Of a DNA stretch of 64,000 nt, positions 6,423 to 55,292 are shown in pieces. A program made the position numbers and the translations under genes. Every line of letters starts with the position of its first letter. Within the stretch, counting starts at the first letter, position 1. The stretch is from an uncultured Gammaproteobacteria bacterium (lineage in GTDB: Bacteria > Pseudomonadota > Gammaproteobacteria > Steroidobacterales > Rariloculaceae): NCBI GenBank assembly GCA_963782445.1, contig CAWAJM010000001.1, positions 2,930,666 through 2,994,665 of the forward strand, in the 5' to 3' direction. The notes beneath the pieces are model-generated. The model made no database searches and was not told the origin of the DNA. It saw nothing but the letters and a program-made list of their open reading frames with translations.

Positions 6423-6832
6423 CGACCGCGGCGAGGCGCCCTGCGCCTCGCCCGATCCGCCGCGGCATCCACCAGCCGTCGGCGCTGCCGCCGCACGCAA
6501 TTTCCATGCCATAAATGGGCGCCTGCCCATCGCCTGTCTCCGTTTCAGGACAGGTTTGTCCCTCTGCCCATCTCTTGTAAATTCTCGGTCGCGCAGGAGA
6601 CCAGCGCCTACTGCGCAGTTGCTGAAAAAGGCAAATCCGCCGCGAGGCGGAGACGCAAAGCCACCGGTCTTTGGCTCGGCCAGAGACAGCGGGGTTGCCA
6701 GCAATGAGTCGAGTCGCTCGCCGCTTTGCGGCGGCGGCGTCCCGGGTGTGAATCCCGTGCGGCTCAAAGCTTCTTCCCCGCTCGGCACCGCGTCGCCGGC
6801 GCCCAAACGCCAAAGAGCGGGGAAGAAAGAGC

Positions 6833-7597: not shown

Positions 7598-9376
7598 TCA
7601 AAAATCGTCGTCGACGATCGTGACCACGGCCGTCAGCAGGTGACCCTGCTGGCGGCCGCTCGGGGACAATAGGCTCGCGTTGACGTAGAAGTGCTCGCGC
7701 GGCTCCGGGACCGCGTCGTCCGTGATGGGAACGAATACCGTGAGCCGGGACTGGCCGGGGGCGAAAGTCTCGACGGTCCGCCCGACATCCCCGAAATCGT
7801 CGCCGGCCTTCGCCGTGCCGCTGCGCGTCCACCAAACAATTCTCGCCGCGTTCCGCGCATCGTCGCGCCGTATTTCGATGGGCACGACCGTATCGCCTTC
7901 GTTCGTCACGATGGACGTGGCCGCGAAATAGACGCGCTGTGACGGCGCCGGCAGCGAAGCCGGAGCGACGGCCGCCTCTGAGGGCCCCGCCTTGTGCGCA
8001 GGCTTCTCCTGCGGCGCTGCGCGCGGATGAGATTCGACTCGTTGCGTCTGCGGCGCCGCGGCGGCCTTGGACTTCACGGCGGGCCGCCCCTCGGGCACCG
8101 CCGCAGCTCGGCCGGCCGGCTCGCTCGCACCCACGGCCGACCGTCCGCTCTCGCCCTTCGCGGGCGCCTGCTCACGCTCGGCCTCGGCGGGCGGCGCGGG
8201 AGCGTCGGCCGCCGTGTCCCGACGTGCTTCGCCGGTGGGCGCCCCGGACGCCCTGTCCTCCGTCGCGGCGCGCGCCGCCGGCGGCGGCAAGGGAGACTTC
8301 GCGCTGCCCGAAGACCGCATCAGATCGGCCGCACCGCGGGCCGCGGGCGCGACGACATAGCGGTCCATCGCTGCAGCCGCCCGCGAGTAGAGCGCAGTCG
8401 CGCGGCTTCCGATCCCGCTCGGGCCGAGCGCCAGCACGGCGAACACGGAGAGCGCGACGAGTGCAGCTGCCGCCAAGACCCCGGCGGCGCGGCGAGCGAA
8501 GGACGGCCCCGTTGCATTGCGGGCCTGCGGCCGCGTTGCCGTAGCGGCGCGCGGCCACCTCCTTGGCCCGGTCCGAAGGTCGAGGCCGGCGAGCAACTGG
8601 GCAACGCTGCGCGTGCGCTCGTCCCGCCCCTTGAGCCCCGCGCGCAGCGCCCGCCATTGGCTGCGCGACAGTCCCTTGATGCGGTCGGGCATCGCGGCGC
8701 GGCGCCCGCTGCGAGCGGGTGTAGACAGGTAGGGAGGCGGCCGTGAACCCGAGAGCAGCTCGTAAGCCAGCGCCGCCAGCCCATAGATGTCGTCGCGCTC
8801 GTCAACGGAAAACGGACCGCTGCGGCTCAGGCAGGCGGCCGAAAACAGCACCTTCACCTCGCCGCGGCCGGCGACGACTACGTTCTCGGCACGGACGTCA
8901 CCGTGCACGACGCCGGCCTCGTGCGCATACATCAGCGCCTCGCCCACCGACTGCACGACCTCGAGGGCCTCCGCCCGGGTCACGAGCTCCGGCTGCAGAC
9001 TGTCGATGACGCCGCGCAGCGCCTCGCCGTCGACGAATTCCATCGTCATGAAATACGTGCCGGCTTCGCGGCCGAGATCGTGGACGGCTGCGATGTGCGG
9101 ATGCTCGAGCCGCCGCACGGCCTCGAACGCGCGCTCGAAGGCGGCGAGCCGAGCAGGCGCCGCCGCCACCTCGCGCGGCAGCACGAGCAGCGCGACTTCG
9201 CGGGGCTCGCCCCAGCGGTCCGTCCGCTGCCGATCGAATGCCCGATACACGCTGCCGAAGCGCCCCTGGTCGAGCCGCTCGTGCACGCGGAAGCGGCCGC
9301 CGAGCCCGCTCGCCACGTCGGCCGCCTCGGCCCTCTCGGGATACCCGCTGGTATCGCCCAGCATGATGGGGTCCAT
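7598..9376 (-). CDS. Membrane-anchored Hanks-type Ser/Thr kinase-like protein (probable pseudokinase) with a C-terminal Calx-beta domain
   Basis: 592 aa with a kinase-fold N-terminus (QGRFGSVYRAF, HGDVRAENVVV). The VAIK lysine is replaced (VALLVL) and DFG is replaced (VLFS). One TM helix (GVLAAAALVALSVFAVLAL) and an Ala/Pro-rich linker follow. The tail is Calx-beta-like (NEGDTVVPIEIRR..WWTRSGTAKAGDDFGDV..FAPGQSRLTVFVPITDDAVPEPREHFYVN). Confidence 0.75.
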   Translation of the reverse strand: MDPIMLGDTSGYPERAEAADVASGLGGRFRVHERLDQGRFGSVYRAFDRQRTDRWGEPREVALLVLPREVAAAPARLAAFERAFEAVRRLEHPHIAAVHDLGREAGTYFMTMEFVDGEALRGVIDSLQPELVTRAEALEVVQSVGEALMYAHEAGVVHGDVRAENVVVAGRGEVKVLFSAACLSRSGPFSVDERDDIYGLAALAYELLSGSRPPPYLSTPARSGRRAAMPDRIKGLSRSQWRALRAGLKGRDERTRSVAQLLAGLDLRTGPRRWPRAATATRPQARNATGPSFARRAAGVLAAAALVALSVFAVLALGPSGIGSRATALYSRAAAAMDRYVVAPAARGAADLMRSSGSAKSPLPPPAARAATEDRASGAPTGEARRDTAADAPAPPAEAEREQAPAKGESGRSAVGASEPAGRAAAVPEGRPAVKSKAAAAPQTQRVESHPRAAPQEKPAHKAGPSEAAVAPASLPAPSQRVYFAATSIVTNEGDTVVPIEIRRDDARNAARIVWWTRSGTAKAGDDFGDVGRTVETFAPGQSRLTVFVPITDDAVPEPREHFYVNASLLSPSGRQQGHLLTAVVTIVDDDF

Positions 9377-9380
9377 GGGA

Positions 9381-10397
9381 CTACCGGGTCAGTGCGTCGG
9401 ACAGCGGCGGCTCGGGCCGCTCGTGGCCTGCGAGACCCGGACGATCCCTTCGTCCCAGCCTCGCATCGATGATGTCCGCGACCCTGTAGTCCTTGAGGTC
9501 CTTGGCATGTGTGAAGATGATGAGCTCGCCGAGCAGCCCGAGCGCGAATAGCTGCACGCCGAGCACGACGAACAGGCATGCGAGCAGCAGCGCGGGCCGG
9601 TCCGCCAGGGGCCGTGCGAATGCGAGCCGCTGCACGAGCAACGCGACCACGACCAGCGCGCCGACGCCGAAGGTCGCGCTGCCGATCATGCCGAAGAAGC
9701 GCAGCGGCTTCTTGGTGAAGCGCACGAGAAAGAATATCGTGAGCACGTCCAGGAAGCGGTGCACGTACTCGCGCAGTCGATAGCGGCCCCTGAAGTCGTC
9801 GCGCTGCGACTGGCTCAGATCGACCTCCCGGACGCGGAAGCCCTGCTTCGCGGCCAGGACCGGCAGCAGTCGATGCTGCTCGCCATAGATCGTAATCTCC
9901 TCGGCGACGCGCCGGTTCAGGACCCGCGCGCCGCAGCCGAGGTCGTTGAACGATTCGCCGGTGATGAGCCTGAGCAGGCGGTGAAAGCCCCGCCGGCGGA
10001 GGCCGTCCAGCCCCTTGACGCGGCGCGGCCACCGGCGGGCAATGACGAGATCCGCGTCGTCGCAGGCCCTCAGCAGCTTCGGAATTTCGACGGCGTCGAT
10101 CTGAAAATACGCCGGCAGCGTCATGAGCCGCGCCCCGCTCGAGTTCGCAAAACCCACCATGAGCGCGGTCGCTTCGCCGAAGCTTTTGCCGAGTTGTACG
10201 ATCTTGATGGGCTCGCCCGAGTCCCGCAGGATCATGAGCTCGCGCCTCGCTTCGGCCCGCCCCCCGTCGAGCACATACAGGATCTCGTAGCTGACGCCGC
10301 AACCATCGAGGCCCTGTCGATAATCGGCGTGCAGAGCCGCAACATCGTCGACTCGGTCGCCGACCGGCACCACGACGGACAGTTCGACTTGTTTCAT
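9381..10397 (-). CDS. GT2-family (GtrB/DPM1-like) membrane glycosyltransferase paralogue with degenerate DXD motifs
   Basis: Start taken at ATG 10397 (MKQVELSVVVPV), which overlaps the upstream stop as ATGA. The longer track ORF (to 10646) overlaps the upstream gene. The protein has a GT-A fold plus two C-terminal TM helices. The usual DDGS and DxDxQ positions read LDGG and LPAYFQID. Confidence 0.75.
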   Translation of the reverse strand: MKQVELSVVVPVGDRVDDVAALHADYRQGLDGCGVSYEILYVLDGGRAEARRELMILRDSGEPIKIVQLGKSFGEATALMVGFANSSGARLMTLPAYFQIDAVEIPKLLRACDDADLVIARRWPRRVKGLDGLRRRGFHRLLRLITGESFNDLGCGARVLNRRVAEEITIYGEQHRLLPVLAAKQGFRVREVDLSQSQRDDFRGRYRLREYVHRFLDVLTIFFLVRFTKKPLRFFGMIGSATFGVGALVVVALLVQRLAFARPLADRPALLLACLFVVLGVQLFALGLLGELIIFTHAKDLKDYRVADIIDARLGRRDRPGLAGHERPEPPLSDALTR

Positions 10398-22840: not shown

Positions 22841-22857
22841 GAGCAAAGTCCGTGCCA
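22841..22857 (-). promoter_or_regulatory. Sigma-54 promoter TGGCACGGACTTTGCTC (minus strand) upstream of the AsnB-family gene
   Basis: Strict match to TGGCAC-N5-TTGC; intergenic, about 130 nt upstream of ATG 22714. Confidence 0.65.
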
Positions 22858-24756: not shown

Positions 24757-24897
24757 TACGTGGAACTTACCTGGTAGGGGACTTGTCGACGGCAAGCGCC
24801 GCTCGCATCGCACACACTTTCCAGATGCTGGAATTCGCCGCGGGGTTGCGGCCCGGGGCGATCGCCCCGAGGCGGAGGCCGTCCAAGGCAACTCGCT

Positions 24898-37116: not shown

Positions 37117-37133
37117 GTGCAAATTGCATGCCA
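37117..37133 (-). promoter_or_regulatory. Sigma-54 promoter TGGCATGCAATTTGCAC (minus strand) for the GT4-GT4-wzy-GT4 operon
   Basis: Strict consensus match in the divergent intergenic region, about 130 nt upstream of ATG 36987. Confidence 0.7.
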
Positions 37134-37347: not shown

Positions 37348-37364
37348 TGGCATGCAAATTGCTT
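37348..37364 (+). promoter_or_regulatory. Sigma-54 promoter TGGCATGCAAATTGCTT for the priming glycosyltransferase gene
   Basis: Strict consensus match, nearly identical to the motifs at 37117-37133 and 44621-44637. It overlaps the first ATG (37347) of the track ORF, so the real start is further downstream. Confidence 0.7.
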
Positions 37365-40879: not shown

Positions 40880-41219
40880 GCTCGACCAGCGCGCAAGTCG
40901 GCGCTCTGCCCCGCCGGCGGCGGTCAGTTCCAACGGTGCGAATCTTCCATGATCCGATGCCCGGCGAATTCGGAAACTGTCTCCATTTGCCGACTGTTGA
41001 CCCGCAGGGTCGACTCATCGACACTCCTTCTCACACCGAGGGCAGACCCATCGAAAGGTGGGGACGCAAAACCACGGGTCTAACGCGAGCACATCGCTAT
41101 GATCGCCGGGTTGCAGGGTTTCGTAGTCGAATGCCTCAGGCCATCGCCATGCGGGGCCATTGCAGTCCTGGATTCTCGCAGTGCTCTTCCTAACGGGCAT
41201 CACGGCAAAGGATTGAAGT

Positions 41220-42728
41220 ATGGCGATGCGAAACCTTCTCGCTTGTCTCTTACTGAGCTTTGCGGTCTATGCAAATGGATACGCAGCCACCTACTACGTG
41301 CGCAACGGTGGCGACGATTCGGCCGACGGCAAGAGCCCCGCTACGGCATGGGCGACGATCGGCAAAGTCAATTCGCATTCCTTCTCGGCGGGCGACTCGG
41401 TACTGTTCCATGAAGGCGACACATGGACCGGCGCTACGCTCGGGATAGGCTGGTCCGGGACGAGCTCCAAGCAGGCCGTGATCGGCGCCTACTACGTCGA
41501 CGCCGGACAACCGCAAACGGGATTTCGTACCAGGCGGCCGACCATCGACGGCCAGAAGAAGTATCCGTCGTCGCACTATGCGCCGCTTGTGGAGGTCAAG
41601 GGCGATAACGTCCGCGTCCAGGATCTCGCGATCGTAAACTCTCAGGGTCGCGGGATCGTGTTCGATTCGGTCTCCGACGACCATGCCGTGAACCTCGTGC
41701 TCTCGAGCATCTATGACGGCTCGATCAAGTTCCTGACATGCTCCGGTTGCCTCGCCGAGGGCAATACGGTATCGGATTCGGACCGGGTCTGGCCCGAAGC
41801 TCACAAGACTTGGTCAGCTGCGATCTCTGCGAACGGTTCCTCGAACGTCGTCATCCGCGGGAACAATGTCATTCACGAGTACGGTGAAGGCATCAACGTC
41901 TTCGGCGGCAGCAAGAACTCGATCATCGAGCACAATTACCTGTTCGGGGTCCGCGCGGTCGGAATCTATTCCGACGGGGCTCCCAGCACCACCATCCGGT
42001 ACAACATTGTGGTGGGCGCGAACGATTCCAGGTTCTGGAGGAACGGGAAGGCATCCGGCGCGGGCATCGCCCTAAACAACGAAAGCTATCACTATGCGGG
42101 CCATGGCGGCTCGCAGAGCACGAGCGTTCAGTCAAAGAACGCCAAGATATACGGCAATCTCGTTGCTTATACCAACGACGGCATCGCCATCTGGGGTCAG
42201 CTCGACGGCTCGAGCTTCGACAACACCATGATCTACAACAACACGCTGGTTGACAACGACGTTCAGTTCGCGAGCCTGGACAATAGACCGATGCCGAATT
42301 CGCAGTTCATGAACAACATCCTCATGAGCATCAGCTCGGGAACGGCGGACGTGAATTCGTCCAGCCTCTCCGGGTTAGTTGCGAAGAATAACTACTTCAG
42401 CCAGGGCGACCCGGGCGGAACGTTTTCGAGCTCCGGCAACGTATATAAAGGCCTCCAGCTCGCGCGCATGAGCGGATGGCGCAGCGTAACGGACCCTGCA
42501 AGCGTCAGTTGGCGGGATTTCCAGATTGCGCCCGGCGGCTCGACGATCGGCGCAGGCAATTCGACGCCGCTCAAGAACGCGACCGCCAACGATTCCTACA
42601 ACATGGACTTCAACGGAAAACCGCACAATCGGCCGCCCGACATGGGAGCCATCCGCTTCGGCACTCTGAAGCGCGTCCCGGGAACGCCGTCCGGTCTCAC
42701 GGCCACCAGTTCCGCCGGCACGACCTGA
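41220..42728 (+). CDS. Secreted right-handed parallel beta-helix repeat protein (polysaccharide lyase/epimerase/hydrolase-like), paralogue 1
   Basis: 502 aa. Signal peptide, ATYYVRNGGDDSADGKSPATAWATIGKV N-cap and repeated beta-helix rungs (VRVQDLAIVNSQGRGI, VIRGNNVIHEYGEGINV, IIEHNYLFGVRAVGIY). Confidence 0.75.
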   Translation: MAMRNLLACLLLSFAVYANGYAATYYVRNGGDDSADGKSPATAWATIGKVNSHSFSAGDSVLFHEGDTWTGATLGIGWSGTSSKQAVIGAYYVDAGQPQTGFRTRRPTIDGQKKYPSSHYAPLVEVKGDNVRVQDLAIVNSQGRGIVFDSVSDDHAVNLVLSSIYDGSIKFLTCSGCLAEGNTVSDSDRVWPEAHKTWSAAISANGSSNVVIRGNNVIHEYGEGINVFGGSKNSIIEHNYLFGVRAVGIYSDGAPSTTIRYNIVVGANDSRFWRNGKASGAGIALNNESYHYAGHGGSQSTSVQSKNAKIYGNLVAYTNDGIAIWGQLDGSSFDNTMIYNNTLVDNDVQFASLDNRPMPNSQFMNNILMSISSGTADVNSSSLSGLVAKNNYFSQGDPGGTFSSSGNVYKGLQLARMSGWRSVTDPASVSWRDFQIAPGGSTIGAGNSTPLKNATANDSYNMDFNGKPHNRPPDMGAIRFGTLKRVPGTPSGLTATSSAGTT

Positions 42729-43031: not shown

Positions 43032-44528
43032 ATGTATCCACGAATCGCACTCGGATTGGTCCTGGCATTGTCTCTTTCCGGCGCCTCTCGGGCCGCGACA
43101 TACTACGTGCGCCACGGCGGCGACGACTCGGCGGACGGCCTCAGCCCCGCCACGGCGTGGGCGACCTTGACCAAAGTCAGCTCCCACTCGTTCTCCGCGG
43201 GAGACAGCGTGCTGCTACACGAGGGCGATACATGGACCGGCCAAACGCTCGAAGTCGATTGGTCGGGCAAGAGCTCGAAGGAAGCCGTCGTCGGTGCCTA
43301 CTACATGAACGGTAGCCAGCCGGAGATCGGCTATCGCACGGCTCGTCCGACTTTGGACGGCCAGAAGAAGGTTCCATCCAGCCAATACGCCGCGATGGTG
43401 ACGGTCAAAGGGGATTGGATACGCGTCCAGGATCTCGCTATCGCAAACTCGGAAGGCCGCGGCATTTTGTTCGACGGCGTCTCGTCGGGGCAAGCCGTAG
43501 ACCTGCTGATATCGGCGGCCTTCGACGGCTCCATCAAATTCATGGATAGCCGGAACGGGCTGGCGGCCGGCAACACCATCACGGGCTCCGACAGGGTATT
43601 TCCCGAGACCGGTCGCGTCTGGTCCGCCGCGATCTCGGCCGGTCGCTCGACCGGCACGATCATCCGTGGCAATAACATCCTCGGGGACTACGGCGAAGGC
43701 ATCAACGTCTTCGAAAACAGCAGCGACTCTCTCATTGAACGCAACTACTTGTACGGCGTACGCGCCGTCAGCATCTATGCCGACGCCGCCCCGTCCACCA
43801 CCATTAGGTACAACATGGTTGTCGGGACGACCGATCGGCAGTTCTGGCGCAGTGCCGATTCCGTCGGCGCCGGCATCGCCCTGAACAACGAAAGCTACCA
43901 CTACCAGGGTCACGGCGGCACGTTGAGCAGCGGCGTGCAGTCGACGCACGCCAAGATATACGGCAACCTCGTGGCCTACACGAGCAGCGGTATCGGCATT
44001 TTCGGTCAGCTAGAGAACTCGCGCTTCGACGGCACGCTAATCTACAACAACACGTTAGTCGACAACGACGTTCAATTCGCGTTACTTACGGCTAATGTCC
44101 CATTGCCGAACTCGCAGTTCATCAACAACATTCTCCTGAGCCTGTCGCCCGGCACTAAGGACGTTAACGTCTCCTCGCTGAATGGCATGGTCGCGAAGAA
44201 CAATTACTTCAGCCAGGGCGATCCAGGCGGCGACTTCTCGAGCGCGGGCAACCGATATGACGGCATCGAGCTCGTCAAGATGACCGGCTGGCGAAGCGTC
44301 AAAGATTCCAAGGCATTGAGTTGGCGGGATTTCCAAGTCAAACCCGGGGCCTCGACGATCGGCGCAGGCGACGACACGCCGCGCACCAAGGCCACCAAGG
44401 CCGACACCTACAACGTCGACTACAACGGCAAGGCCTTTGGCGAACCGCTCGACATGGGCGGCTTGCGATTCGACTCTCTCCACCATGTTCCTGGCAGCCC
44501 GGGCGGGCTCAGTATCACGGCGCAATGA
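43032..44528 (+). CDS. Secreted right-handed parallel beta-helix repeat protein, paralogue 2
   Basis: 498 aa, colinear with 41220..42728 along the full length (ATYYVRHGGDDSADGLSPATAWATLTKV..., IIRGNNILGDYGEGINV, LIERNYLYGVRAVSIY, LIYNNTLVDNDVQFA). Confidence 0.75.
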   Translation: MYPRIALGLVLALSLSGASRAATYYVRHGGDDSADGLSPATAWATLTKVSSHSFSAGDSVLLHEGDTWTGQTLEVDWSGKSSKEAVVGAYYMNGSQPEIGYRTARPTLDGQKKVPSSQYAAMVTVKGDWIRVQDLAIANSEGRGILFDGVSSGQAVDLLISAAFDGSIKFMDSRNGLAAGNTITGSDRVFPETGRVWSAAISAGRSTGTIIRGNNILGDYGEGINVFENSSDSLIERNYLYGVRAVSIYADAAPSTTIRYNMVVGTTDRQFWRSADSVGAGIALNNESYHYQGHGGTLSSGVQSTHAKIYGNLVAYTSSGIGIFGQLENSRFDGTLIYNNTLVDNDVQFALLTANVPLPNSQFINNILLSLSPGTKDVNVSSLNGMVAKNNYFSQGDPGGDFSSAGNRYDGIELVKMTGWRSVKDSKALSWRDFQVKPGASTIGAGDDTPRTKATKADTYNVDYNGKAFGEPLDMGGLRFDSLHHVPGSPGGLSITAQ

Positions 44529-44620
44529 ACAGGTGGAGAATTTCCAGCATTTGGAATGAGCGCCGCCGACTCAGGGCGCGCAAGCCGCCGCGGCGATAGG
44601 AGACCGCGCGCCGGAACCAG

Positions 44621-44637
44621 TGGCATGCAACTTGCTT
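44621..44637 (+). promoter_or_regulatory. Sigma-54 promoter TGGCATGCAACTTGCTT for the OM beta-barrel gene
   Basis: Strict consensus match 37 nt upstream of ATG 44674. It overlaps the first ATG (44620) of the track ORF, which is therefore rejected as the start. Confidence 0.7.
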
Positions 44638-44673: not shown

Positions 44674-45978
44674 ATGAACCGATCCATCGCAAGCAGACGA
44701 TGGTGCCTGGCCGGCACATGCCTGGCATGCGCCGTCGTCGGGTCGGCGCCCTTCGGCGCCGCCTCTGCCGCCTGGGACACCGTCTCCAACATTCGCATGG
44801 GCATCGAAGCGAACGACAATCCGAGGCTCGGCCAACAGCAGACGACACAGTCACAAACGCTGCAGGACCTGCAGGATCACACGTCGGTCCGCGCCCTCGT
44901 AGACATGATCTTCCGCCTTCAGAACATCGGTCAGCGCAGCAACATATACGTGCAGCCCCGAATCCGCGCGGACGCATACTCGGACACGATCGACAAAGAC
45001 CTTCAGCGCAAGGACCTGTACCTGTTCGCGAGCGGCAACTACAAATGGGAACGCGCCGAAATCGGGCTACGTAGCAATTTCGCGCGCGAGAGCATATTGA
45101 GCAGCGAGCTGCTCGACGCGGGGCTCATCGATCTCGGCGACCCGAGCATCGTGGGCCAGCCCATCCAGACGGACACGGGGCAGCTCGTCATGCTCAGCGA
45201 GCACCGAAACCGTGCCATCGTCGCACCGTACGCAAACTTCACCATATCGCCGCGCAGCTCGATCGGCGTGGACGCGACGTATCTGAACCAGACGTATTCG
45301 GGCCTGCAGCTCCGAACCCGGTCCGACATCTGGCAAAAAGAGCTCGGGACGCACGTGTCTCGAACGATCGATTCGCGCACCAGCGCCACGGCCCGCCTTT
45401 TCGCCGCGGACTACCATGCGGTAGCCACGGACAACGACACGCGCACCGTCGGTGTAGAAGGCGGCCTTTCACGCAAGCTCAACGAGACCTTGTCGCTGAA
45501 TCTCAGCGCCGGCCTCGAGCGCAGCGCGTTCACGTATCTGCCCGCGGCCGGCCCGACCGTGCACAATGCGGCCGCGAATTACATCTTCGACGTGGGTCTA
45601 GGTAAGCAGACGGAAACCACGACGCTGAAACTGGACGTGAGCCGGCAAATCGACCCGAGCGCCGCCGGCTTCATGACGCGCCGCAACGAGCTGCGCATCC
45701 TGTACGCGCACGATATGTCCCAGCGGCTGACCCTGAACTTCGCGCTGCGGGCCTTTCAAAGCGGCGGCCTCAGTTCCACCGCCTCCACGGACGAAACACA
45801 GCGCAATTATGCTCGGCTCGCGTTCGAGCTCGACTGGGCATTCACCCGGACGTGGTCGTTCGCCGTGGGCTACGATGCCGTCTCGCAGTCGTTCCAGCAC
45901 GTCTCGAGAGAGAACGGCAGCGCCAATGTCGTCTCGCTGGGCGTCGTCTATCAGGGCTTGTCGCGCCAGGGGCGCTAG
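44674..45978 (+). CDS. Outer-membrane beta-barrel protein of the type associated with PEP-CTERM/EPS loci
   Basis: 434 aa from ATG 44674 with a signal peptide (CLACAVVGSAPFGAASA/AW). The remainder shows the alternating amphipathic-strand pattern with Y/F/W-ending strands (LSLNLSAGLERSAFTY, WSFAVGYDAVSQSF, ANVVSLGVVYQG). Confidence 0.65.
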   Translation: MNRSIASRRWCLAGTCLACAVVGSAPFGAASAAWDTVSNIRMGIEANDNPRLGQQQTTQSQTLQDLQDHTSVRALVDMIFRLQNIGQRSNIYVQPRIRADAYSDTIDKDLQRKDLYLFASGNYKWERAEIGLRSNFARESILSSELLDAGLIDLGDPSIVGQPIQTDTGQLVMLSEHRNRAIVAPYANFTISPRSSIGVDATYLNQTYSGLQLRTRSDIWQKELGTHVSRTIDSRTSATARLFAADYHAVATDNDTRTVGVEGGLSRKLNETLSLNLSAGLERSAFTYLPAAGPTVHNAAANYIFDVGLGKQTETTTLKLDVSRQIDPSAAGFMTRRNELRILYAHDMSQRLTLNFALRAFQSGGLSSTASTDETQRNYARLAFELDWAFTRTWSFAVGYDAVSQSFQHVSRENGSANVVSLGVVYQGLSRQGR

Positions 45979-46140
45979 TGGCCTGTAACGGCCGATTCGG
46001 TAGTGGCTGAGCGATGGATGGCGCGTCGGGGCAAGGCACGAGGAGGAGGCATAGTCGTGACTATGGCGACGACGAGCAACGCGGCACCGGCGCGCCAGAC
46101 GCGTTCAGGCGCTACCGAATCAGCCGTTACAGGCCACTAG
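45975..46140. repeat. 166-bp nested imperfect palindrome between convergent genes
   Basis: 29-nt arms CTAGTGGCCTGTAACGGCCGATTCGGTAG (45975-46003) and CTACCGAATCAGCCGTTACAGGCCACTAG (46112-46140) differ by 1 mismatch. An inner palindrome CATAGTC-GT-GACTATG (46050-46065) has exactly the same centre. The flanks between them are partly complementary. Confidence 0.85.
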
Positions 46141-46177
46141 TTACCCGGGAGTCTTCTGTGACGACGGCCGCCGTTCC

Positions 46178-47038
46178 CTAAGACTTCGTGTTGCGCGCGC
46201 GAACCGCGCGCGTCCGCTCCCGGGACTGAGTGCGCGCGCCGTAACGCAGCGGCACGGCAGCTTCCGGTGCATAGACCATGAAGGTCATGCTCTCCTGGAT
46301 ATAGAGCTGAACGTGCTCGGCGTCGTGATTCGAATAGCCGATCGAGAAGTCCTGACCCACGACCAGCTCGAAGTCGCCGCCGCGCAGGCTCATGACCACG
46401 GCACCGTCGACGGCCGGCGCCCAGATGATGCGGCCATCGAGCTGCTGCGTAACCATGTTGATGACGGGGTAGCCGCCCTTGTTCGTCGTCTCCGTCAGAC
46501 CCTCGTAGCACCGCGGGCCGAGCGCAATCGCGTAAGGGCCCTCGACGCCCTGATTGCGCAGCCAGCTCAGCGCCGCAGCCACCGCTTCGGGATACTTCTC
46601 GTAGTCTTCCGAAAGCGGCAGTGCATGACCGTCCGCGCGTTGCATGATTCCGTCGATGCCGGCCGCGGCGAAGCCCTCAAAGATCGACCGGTCCTCCGTC
46701 AGCGCGGCCGTACGGGCCGCGGCCACGACGTTGCCGAGATCTGCGTCGCGGCTGCCGCGGGCCATGGCGTCGACCTCGGCGCGATCGAGCCGAAACGGGA
46801 CCGTGAGCTCGACGAGGGCGCGGGTCGCGCGCAGCGAGGCGTCGACGCCCTCGCGCGGCGACTCGATGCGGTCCGCGCGGCCCGATCCGTAGGACGAGCA
46901 CTGCCAGCCGTGCGGGCCGCTGAAATCGACGAGCTTGCGTCCGGACAGCGTACGCCGCAGGGTGCGCTCGGCCTCCGCATCGATCTGCGCCCAGGTATCG
47001 GGCGTGATCGGCGCGAATTGTCTGTGCAGGTGATCCAT
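46178..47038 (-). CDS. Family 1 encapsulin nanocompartment shell protein (HK97 fold, linocin M18-like)
   Basis: 286 aa. MDHLHRQFAPITPDTWAQIDAEAERTL N-terminus and characteristic ...GYPVINMV...GGDFELVVGQDFSIGY... Confidence 0.9.
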   Translation of the reverse strand: MDHLHRQFAPITPDTWAQIDAEAERTLRRTLSGRKLVDFSGPHGWQCSSYGSGRADRIESPREGVDASLRATRALVELTVPFRLDRAEVDAMARGSRDADLGNVVAAARTAALTEDRSIFEGFAAAGIDGIMQRADGHALPLSEDYEKYPEAVAAALSWLRNQGVEGPYAIALGPRCYEGLTETTNKGGYPVINMVTQQLDGRIIWAPAVDGAVVMSLRGGDFELVVGQDFSIGYSNHDAEHVQLYIQESMTFMVYAPEAAVPLRYGARTQSRERTRAVRARNTKS

Positions 47039-47047
47039 GCCGCTCCC

Positions 47048-47473
47048 TTATCGCTTCGGTTCCGGCGGCCGGCGCAGGCTGCCGATTCCGAGATCGCCGG
47101 GCTTCGCACCGCCGGACGCCTCGCCCTCCGCGCCTTGCTCGGCGTCGGCTTCGATTCCGATGATGGAACCTTCCGTGAACAAATAGCGGCGGAGAAAACG
47201 GTCCAGGACGGGGTCCTGGCGCCGCAGCCACTCGAGAACCATGGCCGCGTGTTCCTTCTCCTCGTCGCGATTGTGCGCGAGCACGGCCTTGAGCTCCGGG
47301 TCGTCCGTCGCGTCGACGCGTTGCGAGTACCAATCGACGGCCTCGAGCTCCTCCATGAGGGAGCGGATTGCGCGGTGATTGTCGATCGTTTGCGGGCGGA
47401 GCTCGTCCGCGGCTTCGTGCAGGCTATCAGGTTCGCTCATGGTTTCCGTTTCGTCTTTTTCGCTCTCGGGCAC
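47048..47473 (-). CDS. Encapsulated ferritin-like cargo protein (EncFtn) with a C-terminal encapsulin targeting peptide
   Basis: 130-141 aa. Ferritin-like EExxH-type ligands (LMEELEAVDWY, NRDEEKEHAAMVLEWL) and a C-terminal DLGIGSLRR motif matching family-1 targeting peptides. It lies 9 nt upstream of the shell gene. The start is ATG 47473 or 47440. Confidence 0.85.
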   Translation of the reverse strand: MPESEKDETETMSEPDSLHEAADELRPQTIDNHRAIRSLMEELEAVDWYSQRVDATDDPELKAVLAHNRDEEKEHAAMVLEWLRRQDPVLDRFLRRYLFTEGSIIGIEADAEQGAEGEASGGAKPGDLGIGSLRRPPEPKR

Positions 47474-47485
47474 TCGGACCGCCTG

Positions 47486-48193
47486 CTAGCGCAGCAGCCA
47501 CTGCGCCAACAGGTCCCTGCCGAAGATCCAATAGTGCAGGGAAGCTCCCAGAATGGCATGCGATGCGGCGAGCGGCAACAGCACCCGGTACCGACGATAG
47601 AGACTGCCCCAAACCAGGGCAGCCACGAACACCGCCGCCATGACCACGAAGCGCGGATAGTGCACGGCGCTGAATATCAGGGCCATGAGCGCGACGGCGG
47701 CGCGCGGCGGCAGAATGTAGCTCAGCCTGCCGAGCAGGTAGACCTCGAACACGAATTGCTGCGCGAGCCCCCAGAGCAAGTACAGCCCAACGGCCGGCAG
47801 GTAGTGCGGGTTGAGTACGCGCGCTGCCGCTCCCTGCCAGCCGCCGTGCTCGTAGCCGAGCCCCGCGCCGACCGCAAAAAACAACAGCGCGCCCGCCAGC
47901 GTGAACGCGCCGGCCCGAATTGCGGTGGCCTCGAAACGCCGCCTGTACGGCTCGGCCGGAGCCGGCTGCGCCCGCCACAGTCTGCGCGTCCGCCCATATG
48001 CGGCGCCGATGAGCACCACCGCGGCGAGGCCGAGGACGCCGTCGAGGTACCGCGGCCGATCGCGGAACGCGAGCAGATATACGGCCGTGAACAGGCCGAT
48101 CAGTAGCAGCTCAAGCCAAACCTGCCGGACCGAAGGCGCATCGAGGTGCCGGTCGCGGCCGTCCTCGGAACCGAACCCGGCCCCCGTGTGCAT
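47486..48193 (-). CDS. CPBP-family (CAAX protease / Abi-like) intramembrane protein with atypical motifs
   Basis: 235 aa with 6-7 TM helices. The FxxxH motif is present (IFSAVHY) and a second His motif reads SHAILGA. The usual EExxxR motif is not evident (GLAQQFVFEVYLLGRL). Confidence 0.65.
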   Translation of the reverse strand: MHTGAGFGSEDGRDRHLDAPSVRQVWLELLLIGLFTAVYLLAFRDRPRYLDGVLGLAAVVLIGAAYGRTRRLWRAQPAPAEPYRRRFEATAIRAGAFTLAGALLFFAVGAGLGYEHGGWQGAAARVLNPHYLPAVGLYLLWGLAQQFVFEVYLLGRLSYILPPRAAVALMALIFSAVHYPRFVVMAAVFVAALVWGSLYRRYRVLLPLAASHAILGASLHYWIFGRDLLAQWLLR

Positions 48194-48199
48194 GGGGGC

Positions 48200-48862
48200 C
48201 TAGGAACCGGCCGGGAGCGGCAAGCGAATCGTGAAGCCTCCCTCGGTACGCCGCTCGGCCGTGCCGCCGAGCCGCTCGAGCAGATGCTCGGCCACGAGAA
48301 GGCGCACGACGAGCATCTTCTGCTCGCGCCGCCGCTCGTCGGCCCCCTTCTCGGACCCGCCGTCGCCGCTCGCACCGTCGCCGGTGGCAGAGGCCGCCAC
48401 GCGGACCCAGCCGGCCTCCTCCCGCGCCTCGACCGACACTGCCTGGCCGGACTGCATCCCTGCGAGGAGGTTGTCGAGCAGCGTCCCGAGAACCTGGAGC
48501 AGGCGCTCGGCGTCCGTCTCCAGCATGGAGGCGGGAAGGCCGCCGCTCTCGACAGCGATATGACGCTCCTCGGCCGCCGGTCGGAGGTTACCCAGAGCTT
48601 CCCCGAGCACGGTGCCCAGCGTAACGCGCTCGCGCTTGAGCTCGAGGCTATCGGAAGCGATCTGCACAACGTCGCCGAGCTCCCGAATGAGCTTGGCCTC
48701 GCGCTCCAGATTGCGGCGGATGACCGCTGCCGCATTGAGCACGGCATCCCGGTCCGAGGCCTTGAGCTCGAGCAGACTCACGGACATGAGACAGGCATTG
48801 AGCGGAGCGCGCAATTCGTGCACGACGGCGGCGAGCAAGGCATTTCGGTCAACTTTAGTCAC
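48200..48862 (-). CDS. Soluble histidine kinase core without a sensor domain (HisKA plus atypical HATPase_c)
   Basis: 220 aa from a GTG start. H-box AAVVHELRAPLNA and N-box LGTLLDNLLAG. The G1/G2 region is replaced by a Gly/Asp/Arg-rich stretch (ATGDGASGDGGSEKGADERRREQK) with no GxGLGL motif. Confidence 0.7.
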   Translation of the reverse strand: MTKVDRNALLAAVVHELRAPLNACLMSVSLLELKASDRDAVLNAAAVIRRNLEREAKLIRELGDVVQIASDSLELKRERVTLGTVLGEALGNLRPAAEERHIAVESGGLPASMLETDAERLLQVLGTLLDNLLAGMQSGQAVSVEAREEAGWVRVAASATGDGASGDGGSEKGADERRREQKMLVVRLLVAEHLLERLGGTAERRTEGGFTIRLPLPAGS

Positions 48863-49183
48863 GGTATCGGAACGGATCGATTACAATCGCAATGAACCCG
48901 ATGATAACCGCCGACACGGCGAGTTAGAAAACGCGGAAAGGCGCCGGCGGCCCTCGCCGGCCCCTTGGGAGGCAAGCGTGGAACCGACCGGCTTCGGATG
49001 GGTCCACAGTAAGCGAACCTGCTCGGCTTCGCTGGCCGGAAGGCGCGAAGCGGCCGGTGCGGCAGGCGCACGGCGAGCTCTTTCCACAATCCGGCGCCGC
49101 GGCGCGGCGCTGTGCCGACACGCGCTTCCCGAATCTGGTAGATTCGAGTAATACTGATACAAGAGACAGAACGGGTGAACTAG

Positions 49184-50515
49184 ATGGCAAGGGTATTGCT
49201 TGTCGACGACGAGCCGGACTTTGTGCAGTCGGCGTCCGAGATGCTGCGGCTTCACGGCCACGACGTGCGCACGGCGGATACCTTGGCTAATGCACGCCGG
49301 CTGCTCGACTCGCAGAGTTCCGACGTGCTCTTACTGGATCTCATGTTGCCGGACGGCAACGGTCTCGAGCTGCTCGAGGAGCTGGCCGAGAACCATCAGG
49401 CCATCGAGCGGGTCGTGCTCATTACGGGCCACCCCGGCATCAAGTCCCAGATCAAGAACCTGAGCGGGCCCTCGGTCAACTACCTGACCAAACCCATCGA
49501 CAGCCGCGAGCTCATGGGACTGCTGCGCGAGCTCGAGCGTACGGACCAGGGCCAGGAGCCCGAGGACGTAGCGCTGCACTTCGGGGTGCTCGTCGGCGAG
49601 ACGCCGCAAATGCAGGCCGTGTACAACCAGATCGAGAAGATCGGCGGGACGGACAGCGCCGTCCTGATTCTCGGCGAGACGGGCACCGGCAAGGAGCTCG
49701 TCGCGGAGGCAATCCACCGCGTCAGCGGTCGTACCGGCGAATTCGTGGCCGTCAACTGCGGCTCATTATCGCGGGAGCTGGCGGGCAGCGAGCTGTTCGG
49801 GCACGAGAAGGGCAGCTTCACGGGCGCGACGCGCCAACACTCCGGCTTCTTTCAGCGCGCTCACGCGGGTACGCTGTTCCTCGACGAGCTCACGGAGATG
49901 CCGGCCGAGCTGCAGCCGCATTTCCTGCGCGTCCTCGAGACCCGCTGCGTGCTTCCCGTCGGCAGCGAGAAGGAGGTGCCCATCGAGACGCGTGTGGTCG
50001 CGGCCACGAACCGCGTGCCGACCGAGGCCATCCAGAACAAGGCGCTGCGCAAGGACCTGTACTACCGGCTTTCCGTGTTCCCGATCAACCTGCCGCCGCT
50101 GCATTCCCGGCGCGGCGACATTAGCCTGCTCGCCAACCATTTCCTGCGCGAGCTGGCCCGGCGCTACGGTCCCGAGCGCTGGCTGTCGGAAAAATCCATG
50201 AAGCGGCTCGAGGCCTACCACTGGCCCGGCAACGTGCGCGAGCTGCGCCACGTCATCCACCGCGCCTTCATCCTCTCGGACTCCGAAGACGGCGAGCTCG
50301 AGCTGCCGGAGCGCTTCGAGAGCCCGTTCGGCCAGCAGAACCGGCTCGAGGGTCTGCAGGTCGGCCGCTCGATCCGGGACATCGAGCGCGAGCTCATCAT
50401 GCGCACCTTGGCGCACTTCGACGGCGACAAGCGCGCCGCTGCGGAAATCCTCGGGATCAGCCTCAATACGCTGTACAACCGGCTGCACGTCTACGAGCAG
50501 GAGAAGGCGTCCTAG
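49184..50515 (+). CDS. Sigma-54-dependent response regulator (NtrC family bacterial enhancer-binding protein)
   Basis: 443 aa. Receiver domain (VLLVDDEPDF..DVLLLDLMLPDGNG), AAA+ domain (GETGTGKELVAEAIH, ELFGHEKGSFTGA, RVVAATN) and a C-terminal Fis-type HTH (AAEILGISLNTLYNRL). Confidence 0.9.
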   Translation: MARVLLVDDEPDFVQSASEMLRLHGHDVRTADTLANARRLLDSQSSDVLLLDLMLPDGNGLELLEELAENHQAIERVVLITGHPGIKSQIKNLSGPSVNYLTKPIDSRELMGLLRELERTDQGQEPEDVALHFGVLVGETPQMQAVYNQIEKIGGTDSAVLILGETGTGKELVAEAIHRVSGRTGEFVAVNCGSLSRELAGSELFGHEKGSFTGATRQHSGFFQRAHAGTLFLDELTEMPAELQPHFLRVLETRCVLPVGSEKEVPIETRVVAATNRVPTEAIQNKALRKDLYYRLSVFPINLPPLHSRRGDISLLANHFLRELARRYGPERWLSEKSMKRLEAYHWPGNVRELRHVIHRAFILSDSEDGELELPERFESPFGQQNRLEGLQVGRSIRDIERELIMRTLAHFDGDKRAAAEILGISLNTLYNRLHVYEQEKAS

Positions 50516-50583
50516 CGCCTCGGTGTCGGCTGCAGCCCGCCCTATTCATGAACGGAATCGGGCGGCCGCGAAACGTTACCTCC

Positions 50584-50599
50584 TGGCACGGCCCTTGCA
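50584..50599 (+). promoter_or_regulatory. Sigma-54 promoter TGGCACGGCCCTTGCA for csbD/AI-2E/mgtC
   Basis: Perfect consensus, 38 nt upstream of ATG 50635 (AGGAGA RBS) and immediately downstream of the bEBP gene. Confidence 0.75.
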
Positions 50600-50634
50600 C
50601 CCTGGCTAAGCAGGCAGTCAAGGAGAATAGTCGT

Positions 50635-50835
50635 ATGAACTGGGATCGTATCGAAGGCAACTGGAAACAACTCAAAGGCGACGCGCGGCAGCGCTGGGGC
50701 AAGCTCACCGACGACGACTGGGAGGTCATCGGCGGGAAGCGCGACGAGCTCGTCGGCCGCCTTCAGGAACGCTACGGCAAGAGCCGGGACGAGGCCGAAC
50801 GCGAGGTCGAGGACTGGGGCCGTAACCTGAGCTGA
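50635..50835 (+). CDS. csbD: CsbD-family general stress protein
   Basis: 66 aa: MNWDRIEGNWKQLKGDARQRWGKLTDDDWEVIGGKRDELVGRLQERYG, a textbook CsbD repeat. Confidence 0.85.
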   Translation: MNWDRIEGNWKQLKGDARQRWGKLTDDDWEVIGGKRDELVGRLQERYGKSRDEAEREVEDWGRNLS

Positions 50836-50844
50836 CGAGAGCCG

Positions 50845-52008
50845 TTGCAGCCGCCGGAGCCGCGATTTCGCAAGCTGTTCGCCGTTGCGGTCGTTCTGAC
50901 ATTCAGCTTGCTGTTCTTCGACATGATCGCCCCGTTTATCGAGGCGGTCATACTGGCGGCGGTCTTGAGCGGACTGCTCTACCCGGCCTTCCGCTGGCTG
51001 GCCGGGCGTCTACCCAACGAGGGGATGGCCGCGACGATCACCGTCGCGGCCGTTCTCTTCGCCATTGTGCTGCCGCTCGTCTTCTTGGTCTTCGCTTTCG
51101 TCAAGGAAGCGATCCGCATCACCGGCGACCTCGCCCCCTGGATACAGGCCCAGCTCAACGGGCGCGGGCCGCAGTGGCACATCCCGACCTGGGTGCCTTT
51201 CGGCGCCTATCTGGAACCGTATCGGGACCAGATCCTCGGCCGTCTCGGCGACCTCGTAAGCCAGGCCGGAAGCTATTTCGTCAACGGGCTATCGGCCGTG
51301 ACGCAGGGCACGTTCCTGTTCGTGCTGAACCTGTTCATCATGCTCTACTCGATGTTCTTCTTTCTCATGGCCGGGCCCAAGCTTTGGGACATCTTCGGCT
51401 ACACGCCGCTGACGCACGAGGACCTCGAGCTCATTGCCGAGAAGGGTATCTCGATCGCCCGCGCAACGCTCAAAGGGACCGTCGTCGTCGGTGTGCTGCA
51501 GGGCACGCTGGCCGGTGCGGCGTTTGCCGTCACGGGCATCGAGGGCCCGGTGTTCTGGGGCGTCGGCGTGGCCTTCGCCTCGGTGATTCCGGGGATCGGC
51601 GCCGCCATTGTCTGGGTCCCGGCCTGTATCTTTCTGTTCGTGACCGGGCACACGCTGCCCGCGATCGGCCTGTTGCTGTGGTGCGCGCTCGTCGTGAGCT
51701 CGGTGGACAACCTCGTGCGCCCGTGGCTCGTCGGCAGCGACACCCGCATGCCCGACGTTCTGATCCTACTGAGCACGCTCGGCGGAATAGCGATGTTCGG
51801 CGTGACCGGCATCGTCATCGGTCCCATCATTGCGGGCCTATTTCTCACGAGCTGGCACATATTCTCGGCCAGCTTTCGGCAGGAATTCGAGAGTGCCGAT
51901 GCCGCACCGCCGCTGTTGGACGAGGAAACCGAAGGTCTCGGCACCGAGGACCGCCCTCGCCAAAGTTCTTCCGGCTCCGGGACTTCGAGCCGCAAGAAGG
52001 CCGGCTAG
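50845..52008 (+). CDS. AI-2E family transporter (PerM/YhhT, UPF0118)
   Basis: 387 aa polytopic membrane protein with family-typical stretches (LYSMFFFLMAGP, LKGTVVVGVLQG, ASVIPGIGAAIVWVPA). TTG start at 50845. Confidence 0.85.
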   Translation: MQPPEPRFRKLFAVAVVLTFSLLFFDMIAPFIEAVILAAVLSGLLYPAFRWLAGRLPNEGMAATITVAAVLFAIVLPLVFLVFAFVKEAIRITGDLAPWIQAQLNGRGPQWHIPTWVPFGAYLEPYRDQILGRLGDLVSQAGSYFVNGLSAVTQGTFLFVLNLFIMLYSMFFFLMAGPKLWDIFGYTPLTHEDLELIAEKGISIARATLKGTVVVGVLQGTLAGAAFAVTGIEGPVFWGVGVAFASVIPGIGAAIVWVPACIFLFVTGHTLPAIGLLLWCALVVSSVDNLVRPWLVGSDTRMPDVLILLSTLGGIAMFGVTGIVIGPIIAGLFLTSWHIFSASFRQEFESADAAPPLLDEETEGLGTEDRPRQSSSGSGTSSRKKAG

Positions 52009-55275: not shown

Positions 55276-55292
55276 TGGCACACAGCTTGCTT
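55276..55292 (+). promoter_or_regulatory. Sigma-54 promoter TGGCACACAGCTTGCTT
   Basis: Perfect consensus. It is divergent from the M48 gene and about 295 nt upstream of glgC, with no credible ORF immediately downstream. Confidence 0.65.

Follow-up and report, generated by a model that had tools for sequence, protein, structure and literature searches.

An encapsulin–EncFtn gene pair as a probable part of a sigma-54 stress island restricted to one lineage of uncultured Gammaproteobacteria

When the genes of an encapsulin iron compartment follow closely behind genes for a membrane protein and a kinase-like protein, it can be asked whether all of them form one functional operon or whether the compartment belongs to a wider regulatory unit. 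We addressed this question at a locus of an uncultured gammaproteobacterium (Rariloculaceae; assembly GCA_963782445.1, contig CAWAJM010000001.1), using a stretch of 64,000 nucleotides (positions 2,930,666 to 2,994,665) that is called the window below. A preliminary description had placed a family 1 encapsulin shell gene, its EncFtn cargo gene, a CPBP-type membrane protein gene and a histidine-kinase-like gene in a single operon, divergent from the gene of an NtrC-type sigma-54 enhancer-binding response regulator (bEBP). From the comparison with related loci, we consider it rather probable that the compartment, a standard one, belongs as one module to a sigma-54 stress island that is specific to a lineage of uncultured soil Gammaproteobacteria. 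The five genes were recovered where the preliminary description had put them, with the six-frame list of open reading frames (ORFs) and curated models in agreement:

46178-47038, minus strand: family 1 encapsulin shell, 286 aa (NCBIfam encap_f1 NF041155 and Pfam PF04454)
47048-47440, minus strand: EncFtn cargo, 130 aa, start at the ATG shared by all orthologues (TIGR04535 and start-codon comparison)
about 47069-47095, minus strand: targeting peptide DLGIGSLRR of EncFtn (alignment with Rhodospirillum rubrum EncFtn)
47486-48193, minus strand: QQ-type CPBP (Rce1-like) membrane protein, 235 aa (Pfam PF02517)
48200-48862, minus strand: short protein of a dimerization and histidine phosphotransfer (DHp) domain and a degenerate catalytic and ATP-binding (CA) domain, a pseudo-histidine-kinase of 220 aa with a GTG start (Pfam HisKA, alignments and model)
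49184-50515, plus strand: NtrC-family bEBP, 443 aa (Pfam)

The compartment genes were recognized above the cut-offs of their family models, which bore out their initial assignment. The shell scored 314.4 bits against NF041155 (encap_f1; cut-off 100) and 300 bits against Linocin_M18 (PF04454; cut-off 24.3, E = 1e-89), and family 1 shells from the PDB matched it at 1e-84 to 1e-44, with 9ry4 as the best solved relative (E = 1e-84). A basic tail of about 20 aa at the shell C-terminus runs past the end of the family model. The EncFtn protein scored 147.4 bits against TIGR04535 (cut-off 125) and aligned to the EncFtn of R. rubrum at 2.4e-41, with the segments MEELEAVDWY and EEKEH (ferroxidase-centre Glu/Glu/His and entry-site residues) identical. 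Its C-terminal end, GDLGIGSLRRPPEPKR, falls opposite LGIGSLKG, the targeting peptide of the R. rubrum protein, in the alignment, and the shell gene follows the cargo gene after 9 nt. It was noted that the longest form of the EncFtn ORF (47048-47473, minus strand) opens at a GTG at 47473; an ATG (ATGAGCGARCC) is kept in all orthologues and corresponds to position 47440 in the window. Because EncFtn starts at this ATG and not at the GTG, the gap between the CPBP and EncFtn genes is 45 nt and not the 12 nt first reported, whereas the reported 6 nt between the kinase-like and CPBP genes stood; the gaps along the array are thus 6, 45 and 9 nt. Judged from these models and alignments, the predicted compartment is of the standard iron-mineralizing type, with EncFtn in a family 1 encapsulin, and is ordinary in itself.

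We then compared gene neighbourhoods across 168 related loci, collected in a CPBP-centred and a shell-centred (Enc-centred) survey and cited by locus number where needed; all of these relatives are metagenome-assembled genomes (MAGs) or metagenome contigs. The CPBP-centred survey yielded two groups of interest. Class A comprises the window and 13 distinct gammaproteobacterial MAG loci with the bEBP, short kinase-like, CPBP, EncFtn and Enc genes, and class B, a sister clade, comprises 6 loci with bEBP, kinase, CPBP and CsbD genes and no encapsulin, the CPBP gene standing at the same position as in class A. The roughly 60 remaining loci carried the CPBP gene among unrelated neighbours, which in Gammaproteobacteria were often EthD-like, ArfB and HAD hydrolase genes. 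Among the 80 metagenomic encapsulin loci of the Enc-centred survey, all seven whose shell reached 70% identity to that of the window had the QQ-type CPBP gene upstream together with a sigma-54 element, and the short kinase-like gene and the bEBP gene were present in all three of these seven whose contig was long enough. With a shell identity of 60% or less, none of 73 loci had the CPBP, kinase or bEBP gene or the sigma-54 element, and about 26 of them have EncFtn. Taken over the 21 clade members, which are uncultured Gammaproteobacteria with a shell about 65% or more identical to that of the window, the CPBP gene stood directly upstream of EncFtn in 21 of 21, and the bEBP gene adjoined the encapsulin in every member with sufficient contig. 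The set of bEBP, short kinase-like protein, QQ-type CPBP and EncFtn-Enc is confined to one clade.

The order of the genes within the clade bears directly on the operon question. Only in the window, L001 and L006 does the kinase-like gene immediately precede the CPBP gene. Most of the remaining class A loci have a DUF4398 gene and a DUF4398-OmpA gene between the two, both on the opposite strand. Since only three of the 21 members show it, the head-to-tail array of four genes is a derived arrangement. The preliminary description had taken the four-gene operon as its starting point and had named an internal promoter ahead of encFtn-enc as the observation that would speak against it; such a promoter was found in 18 of the 21 clade members, so that the single operon does not hold as the conserved state.

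This promoter emerged from a scan for -24/-12 elements with the motif TGGCAC-N5-TTGCW, in which GG and GC were required. Conserved elements were found at four places: after the CPBP stop codon, before the CsbD gene, before the DUF4398/OmpA pair and before a putative beta-barrel gene. The element upstream of EncFtn lies 10-100 nt past the CPBP stop codon. Of the 17 loci of classes A and B, 16 had an element scoring at least 18.5 within 150 nt of the CPBP stop, as had seven of seven further metagenomic loci; at that score, the background is 0.21 per kb per strand, so that about 3% of 155-nt stretches would have one by chance. It sits in a non-coding stretch with diverged flanks, and all six class B loci carry it, there in front of other small genes. 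The window, L001 and L006 have no canonical element after the CPBP gene, the window's spacer being 45 nt. The elements and island genes of the window are as follows:

47493-47508, minus strand: weak sigma-54-like element TGGCGCAGTGGCTGCT in the CPBP 3' end (LAQWLL codons), 2 mismatches, score 18
50584-50599, plus strand: perfect sigma-54 promoter TGGCACGGCCCTTGCA, 0 mismatches, 35 nt upstream of the CsbD gene
50635-50835, plus strand: CsbD-like general stress protein (Pfam CsbD, 68 bits)
50845-52008, plus strand: AI-2E family transporter (Pfam AI-2E_transport, 138 bits)
44621-44636, plus strand: sigma-54 promoter TGGCATGCAACTTGCT, upstream of the putative beta-barrel gene
44674-45978, plus strand: conserved 434-aa signal-peptide protein, convergent with the shell gene (cluster C9, in 12 class A loci)

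The CsbD and AI-2E genes form a unit downstream of the bEBP gene whose synteny is kept in relatives, and the promoter at the TGGCACGGCCCTTGCA site is kept in place in L001, L002, L004, L031, L040 and the class B loci. The 434-aa protein is probably an outer-membrane beta-barrel, to judge from weak Pfam beta-barrel matches. In the class B locus L046, sigma-54 elements precede a small lipoprotein gene and, further on, genes for a PRC-barrel protein and small hydrophilic proteins (8600-10200); the class B loci L032, L051, L053 and L055 have sigma-54 promoters at the same position. From its gene content, the island looks like a general-stress regulon in character. A small ORF was also observed between the sigma-54 promoter and EncFtn in seven relatives (L014, L017, L020, L023, L031, L038 and L040), the one in L017 (about 8762-8920) encoding 52 aa; the product has a single transmembrane (TM) helix and then a basic tail (MSESAVAIAIYAGLGLLVAVVIFAGALWLANAARRGN...). 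A tblastn search of the 64-kb window found no small TM ORF of this kind, no DUF4398/OmpA pair and no EthD-like gene.

The Pfam domains of the bEBP were scored at 72 bits for REC, 208 bits for Sigma54_activat and 48 bits for HTH_8, with AAA_lid_14 found as well, and the REC, AAA+ and Fis-type helix-turn-helix (HTH) architecture is complete. The acceptor D52 lies in LLLDLMLPD, the GAFTGA loop reads GSFTGA, and GETGTGKE is present, in keeping with the intact receiver Asp that had been reported. None of the NCBIfam equivalogs reached its cut-off, the best being ntrC (324 against 559). Across class A, the bEBP is 83-97% identical and the kinase-like protein 34-71%. NtrC, ZraR, AtoC, GlrR and the PEP-CTERM regulator PrsR share the same domain order and intact acceptor Asp; the window's bEBP differs from such two-component activators in that its cognate kinase gene has degenerated in the clade.

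This degeneration concerns the 220-aa protein, which has no sensor domain and no TM segment. It scored 28.9 bits for HisKA (above the cut-off of 26.9) and 26.3 bits for HATPase_c (just below 26.4). The H-box is present as HELRAPLN with an invariant phospho-acceptor, H15, and residue H+4 is Ala; the canonical HisKA phosphatase motif has Thr or Asn at H+4. The G1 (DxGxG), F and G2 (GxGxG) boxes are missing, and the N-box Asn is there in the window protein but is not conserved across the short orthologues. An AlphaFold2 model (predicted local distance difference test, pLDDT, 86.6) gave a DHp hairpin followed by a CA-like alpha/beta domain, in which residues 161-173 form a Gly/Asp-rich, low-confidence loop at the place of the ATP lid. 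Since G1, F and G2 are lost, the protein is not an ATP-dependent kinase by the usual criteria, and the sensor-less core with a degenerate ATP lid that had first been described proved more degenerate than was thought. It was noted that the public gene call P0020 (195 aa) opens at Met26 and leaves out the H-box (region 48788-48862); we placed the start at the GTG at 48862 because the residues upstream of Met26 are conserved among orthologues.

The orthologues of class B show what such a gene may once have encoded. They are 670-750 aa long, with a multi-TM region, PAS, DHp and an intact CA domain, whose boxes read NLLENAF, DTGAGLS, VFTPFWR and HKGLGLGL. The class A proteins are about 205-230 aa long and keep H15, L17, R18 and P20-A23 among their invariant DHp residues, with the N-box Asn variable, G1 lost, the F box deleted and G2 changed to QKGFAVRL or QKMLVVRL. 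The L031 protein is short and retains G1 and G2, which makes it an intermediate form, and in the alignment of orthologues the DHp domain is far more conserved than the CA domain. An evolutionary series is visible in these sequences: a TM-PAS sensor kinase would have been shortened to a soluble kinase, which would then have degenerated to a pseudokinase. The tblastn search of the window found no full-length sensor kinase paralogue.

Fold and sequence searches placed the window protein near known pseudokinases. The best fold match of the model was the pseudokinase DivL (4q20, 2e-13), followed by HK853 and RetS, and the PDB sequence matches were KdpD, RetS and DivL. Like DivL of Caulobacter and RetS of Pseudomonas, the protein has a DHp four-helix-bundle element followed by a CA-like domain without ATP motifs; it differs from DivL in keeping the phospho-acceptor His, where DivL has Tyr, and it has no sensor, receiver or Hpt domain. 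A functional likeness to DivL/RetS-type proteins we only infer, by analogy. ChpT of Caulobacter and Spo0B of Bacillus are DHp-based phosphotransfer proteins that were not among the matches listed.

The membrane protein was examined with an alignment of 15 database homologues and another of 81 genome-derived members. It matched the Rce1-like family PF02517 at 35.5 bits (cut-off 22.4). In place of motif 1 (EExxxR) it has QQFVFE, and the family as a whole QQxxF(E/Q), with QQ in 81 of 81 members; the subfamily pattern is W-[AG]-L-[LV]-Q-Q-x-[LIV]-F-[QE], with Gln or Glu at the Arg position. Motif 2 (FxxxH) is present as FSAVH, its His invariant and its first position Phe or Tyr. Motif 3 (HxxxN/D) is replaced by SHAILG, with an invariant His and the N/D position occupied by Gly (70 members) or Ala (10 members), under the subfamily pattern S-H-A-x-L-[GA]. 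Residues Q145, Q146, R156, H178 and H212 are invariant in all 81 members. The initial remark that FxxxH is present and EExxxR not evident was thus confirmed, and for the loss of motif 1 it extends to all 81 members. An all-helical AlphaFold2 model (pLDDT 89.9) had as its best PDB fold matches SpdC (6u0o; probability 0.99, TM-score 0.40) and Rce1 (4cad; TM-score 0.41-0.45), and a profile search of the family against PDB sequences gave no match. The protein shares the helical fold, motif 2 and the motif 3 His with CPBP/Rce1-like proteases and their non-catalytic relatives, SpdC of Staphylococcus aureus and APH-1; it differs from the CPBP/Rce1 proteases in that both Glu are Gln, Arg is Glu or Gln and the motif 3 Asn/Asp is Gly or Ala, and the TM-score is only about 0.4. 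Because Gln is unable to act as general base in the canonical mechanism, the protein is most likely non-proteolytic, and the QQ-type CPBP is likely a pseudo-protease that retains a strictly conserved polar site.

The distribution of this family speaks to its role. Among the 80 of 116 relatives kept for neighbourhood analysis, QQ-type CPBP genes were found in Gammaproteobacteria, Desulfobacterota, Nitrospirota, Planctomycetota, Binatia, Methylomirabilota and other groups. They span at least five phyla and mostly have no encapsulin nearby. Since the family occurs in other phyla, and in the sister clade at the same position, without encapsulin, the CPBP protein is not regarded as an encapsulin partner, and its earlier casting as a partner of the compartment was not upheld. 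We found no support for a specific tie between the QQ-type CPBP and the compartment; the island simply abuts the CPBP gene.

The divergent region between the bEBP and kinase-like genes measured 321 bp, close to the 320 bp first estimated. Two features stood out in it:

48901-48909, minus strand: GGTTATCAT box, resembling a -10 element, 38 nt before the GTG of the kinase-like gene
49130-49146, no strand assigned: palindrome CGAATCT-N3-AGATTCG, perfect, 38 nt before the ATG of the bEBP gene

The GGTATCAT/GGTTATCAT block is kept in 10 of 12 aligned class A intergenic regions, with none evident in L003 and L031, and the GGTTATCAT box is the probable sigma-70-type promoter of the kinase-like gene and, in the window, of the whole array too. 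The block of the CGAATCT palindrome is recognizable in 11 of the 12 regions (not in L031), with substitutions in several and exact copies in L002, L004 and L006, and the palindrome is a candidate operator of the bEBP promoter. As a common upstream activator site it was rejected, being unique in the window and not recurring at sigma-54 promoters. No conserved -24/-12 element was found in the intergenic region. A sigma-54-like CGGTTCCACGCTTGCC seen by eye upstream of the kinase-like gene was dismissed on account of a one-base deletion between GG and GC in L001, and a TGGCAAGGGTATTGCT match at 49185 was set aside as a promoter, lying in the wrong orientation in the bEBP start codon region (MARVLL). 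Scans of 45800-50700 for intrinsic terminators and sigma-70 promoters found no site in the array above chance. The class A locus L040 (7522-8001) seems to have no kinase gene between its bEBP and CPBP genes, and a sigma-54 element there (7811-7826, minus strand) faces the bEBP gene, which suggests autoregulation of the bEBP in that lineage.

Put together, these observations can be accommodated as follows. In the ancestral layout, as judged from the relatives, a conserved NtrC-type bEBP gene would have stood among several separately transcribed sigma-54 units, namely CsbD with the AI-2E transporter, the DUF4398/OmpA lipoprotein pair, and EncFtn-Enc, the last with its promoter right behind the stop codon of the QQ-type CPBP gene. 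The neighbouring bEBP would activate the EncFtn-Enc, CsbD and DUF4398/OmpA promoters, so that the iron compartment would be made in a stress response. The gene beside the bEBP would originally have encoded a membrane-bound TM-PAS sensor kinase and would have been cut, in the encapsulin clade, to a soluble DHp domain with a degenerate CA domain. The resulting pseudokinase most likely still docks to the bEBP receiver through its conserved DHp helices, probably acting as a phospho-relay, weak phosphatase or sequestering modulator and not as a kinase. The sub-lineage of the window, L001 and L006 would have come to lack the DUF4398/OmpA pair and the canonical EncFtn promoter, which would have left the four genes head to tail, and the window array is probably co-transcribed by read-through from the sigma-70-like promoter upstream of the kinase-like gene. 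Of the stress coupling through a kinase/bEBP pair that had been hypothesized, the sigma-54 link is retained in this proposal, given the -24/-12 element upstream of EncFtn in 18 of 21 members, whereas the kinase half is not, as the protein is without ATP-binding motifs.

The reading closest to the preliminary description is that the kinase-like, CPBP, EncFtn and Enc genes are one functional operon, in which the CPBP protein is a sensor or tether and passes a signal, by way of the soluble kinase, to the bEBP that controls compartment expression. The short gaps of 6, 45 and 9 nt in the window, without a terminator or canonical internal promoter, and the CPBP gene immediately before EncFtn in all 21 members would fit it, as would the known kinase-modulating, non-catalytic CPBP/Abi proteins (SpdC with WalK and Abx1 with CovS) and the fact that SpdC is the best fold match of the CPBP model. 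However, the genes are colinear in only 3 of 21 members, opposite-strand genes split the kinase-like and CPBP genes in most of the others, and EncFtn has a promoter of its own in all 18 others. The QQ-type CPBP family, moreover, occurs mostly without encapsulin, kinase or bEBP. SpdC did not bind kinases without TM segments (PMC5854430). Because TM segments of the kinase are required and the 220-aa protein is soluble, the SpdC/Abx1 precedent is not transferable to it, and the window, unlike the SpdC and Abx1 systems, encodes no TM-containing kinase partner; an interplay of this type could exist for the TM-bearing class B orthologues, by analogy. The loss of the ATP-binding motifs also contradicts the idea of the short protein as a sensing kinase. 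We consider the one-operon reading very unlikely. It is just as improbable, in our estimate, that an RpoN general stress regulon with encapsulin as output and a DHp-only relay or modulator partner receives membrane input through the QQ/His/His site of the CPBP protein; if true, an encapsulin would for the first time have a defined signalling pathway in control of it.

A different possibility is that EncFtn-Enc of the window is still under sigma-54, with TGGCGCAGTGGCTGCT in the CPBP 3' end replacing the lost promoter and the array divided into two transcription units. TGGCGCAGTGGCTGCT has no rival in the window as a candidate internal promoter of EncFtn-Enc. Its GG and GC are correctly spaced (N10) and lie about 45 nt ahead of the EncFtn ATG, the element is identical in L001, and in L004 a near-identical peptide (FAQWLL in place of LAQWLL) is encoded without the -24 GG, an intergenic promoter being present instead. 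Yet motifs as weak as this arise by chance at about 0.6 per kb per strand, the consensus is broken at -22 and -15, the element is broken in the colinear L006, and the sequence is constrained by the coding of a conserved C-terminus; we regard this alternative as doubtful. It is also conceivable that the linkage is one of synteny only, the EncFtn-Enc motif being served by another activator or non-functional and expression in the window being constitutive or regulated by iron or oxidative conditions. Class B, which keeps the island without encapsulin, is consistent with this. Against it stand the -24/-12 element kept amid diverged non-coding flanks in 18 of 21 members of class A and 6 of 6 of class B, and the bEBP gene as the sole activator gene retained beside the promoters throughout the clade, at 83-97% identity. 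Synteny without shared regulation we consider unlikely.

Several points weigh against the sigma-54 island proposal itself. Counts of k-mers and palindromes at the CsbD, EncFtn and DUF4398-OmpA promoters returned only k-mers of coding sequence and no shared upstream activator site that would tie the promoters to one bEBP, which also favours synteny only. The same holds for the abundance of sigma-54-like motifs in the window, about twice the expected number, a sign of several bEBPs, of which only this one was identified. At the beta-barrel promoter the palindrome is a different one, and this promoter may be part of a separate regulon. The contrast between the short kinase with encapsulin and the long kinase without it may stem from a single evolutionary event, in which case it is one observation. 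A weak TGGCGC-N5-CTGCT, a possible sigma-54 promoter, is retained in the CPBP 3' end of the window and L001, and the model draws on motif conservation and synteny in MAGs and metagenome contigs.

Further features of the window lie outside the compartment locus or at its edge:

44542-44556, no strand assigned: palindrome TTCCAGCATTTGGAA (TTCCA-N5-TGGAA), 65 nt upstream of the beta-barrel sigma-54 promoter
41031-41118, plus strand: c-di-GMP-I riboswitch aptamer (Rfam, 75.8 bits, above the gathering score)
6621-6703, plus strand: c-di-GMP-I riboswitch aptamer (Rfam, 68.8 bits, above the gathering score)

The TTCCA-N5-TGGAA palindrome was also found in perfect form at 24819-24833, and with one mismatch allowed the window has 4 copies against 0.59 expected; similar motifs stand at the corresponding place upstream of the beta-barrel promoter in L001, L003, L004 and L006. 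The palindrome may be bound by a bEBP other than the one at the compartment locus, perhaps by one connected with the exopolysaccharide genes. Over the whole window, 40 sigma-54 -24/-12 matches were counted against 20.7 expected, and none of 100 shuffles reached 40. Examples are a divergent pair 230 bp apart (37118-37133, minus strand, and 37348-37363, plus strand), 22842-22857 (minus strand) and 55276-55291 (plus strand). The region thus appears, by motif count, rich in RpoN-dependent promoters. The aptamer at 41031-41118 lies upstream of genes for a 502-aa right-handed beta-helix protein (41220-42728) and then a beta-helix/NosD-like protein (43032-44528), which points to possible control of secreted polysaccharide-modifying enzymes by c-di-GMP. 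In the convergent gap between the beta-barrel and shell genes, a 48-nt inverted repeat was observed (arms 45966-46013 and 46102-46149, with 88 nt between them; 83% complementary, with a 29-nt core matching at 28 of 29). No further copy was found in the window, and all 168 related loci lack it. A MITE-like (miniature inverted-repeat transposable element) insertion or a large bidirectional terminator hairpin could account for it.

With respect to known systems, the compartment agrees with the family 1 encapsulin and EncFtn pairs of R. rubrum and Haliangium ochraceum in its models, ferroxidase residues and LGIGSL peptide, the cargo gene lying 9 nt upstream here. It differs from them in its place in a sigma-54 island beside a bEBP gene, in the -24/-12 promoter of its relatives and in the basic tail of the shell. 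Our literature search found no paper linking encapsulins with CPBP proteins, sigma-54, RpoN or histidine kinases, in line with the preliminary remark that two-component and CPBP links are undescribed for encapsulins. No such regulator or CPBP accessory gene is given for family 1 in the main text of a large survey of encapsulin operons (PMC8346489). Sigma-54 control of an encapsulin operon thus appears to be undescribed and would be the one new point here, on the basis of motif conservation and synteny.

As far as we found, little has been published on the control of encapsulin expression. The conserved sigma-54 promoter, the bEBP and the accompanying CsbD, DUF4398/OmpA and PRC-barrel genes amount to a hypothesis that can be tested by cloning. 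The analysis also yielded, as by-products, a CPBP subfamily with an invariant change of EE to QQ and a series leading from sensor kinase to pseudokinase. If the proposal is true, it would place an iron nanocompartment in an RpoN-dependent stress response.

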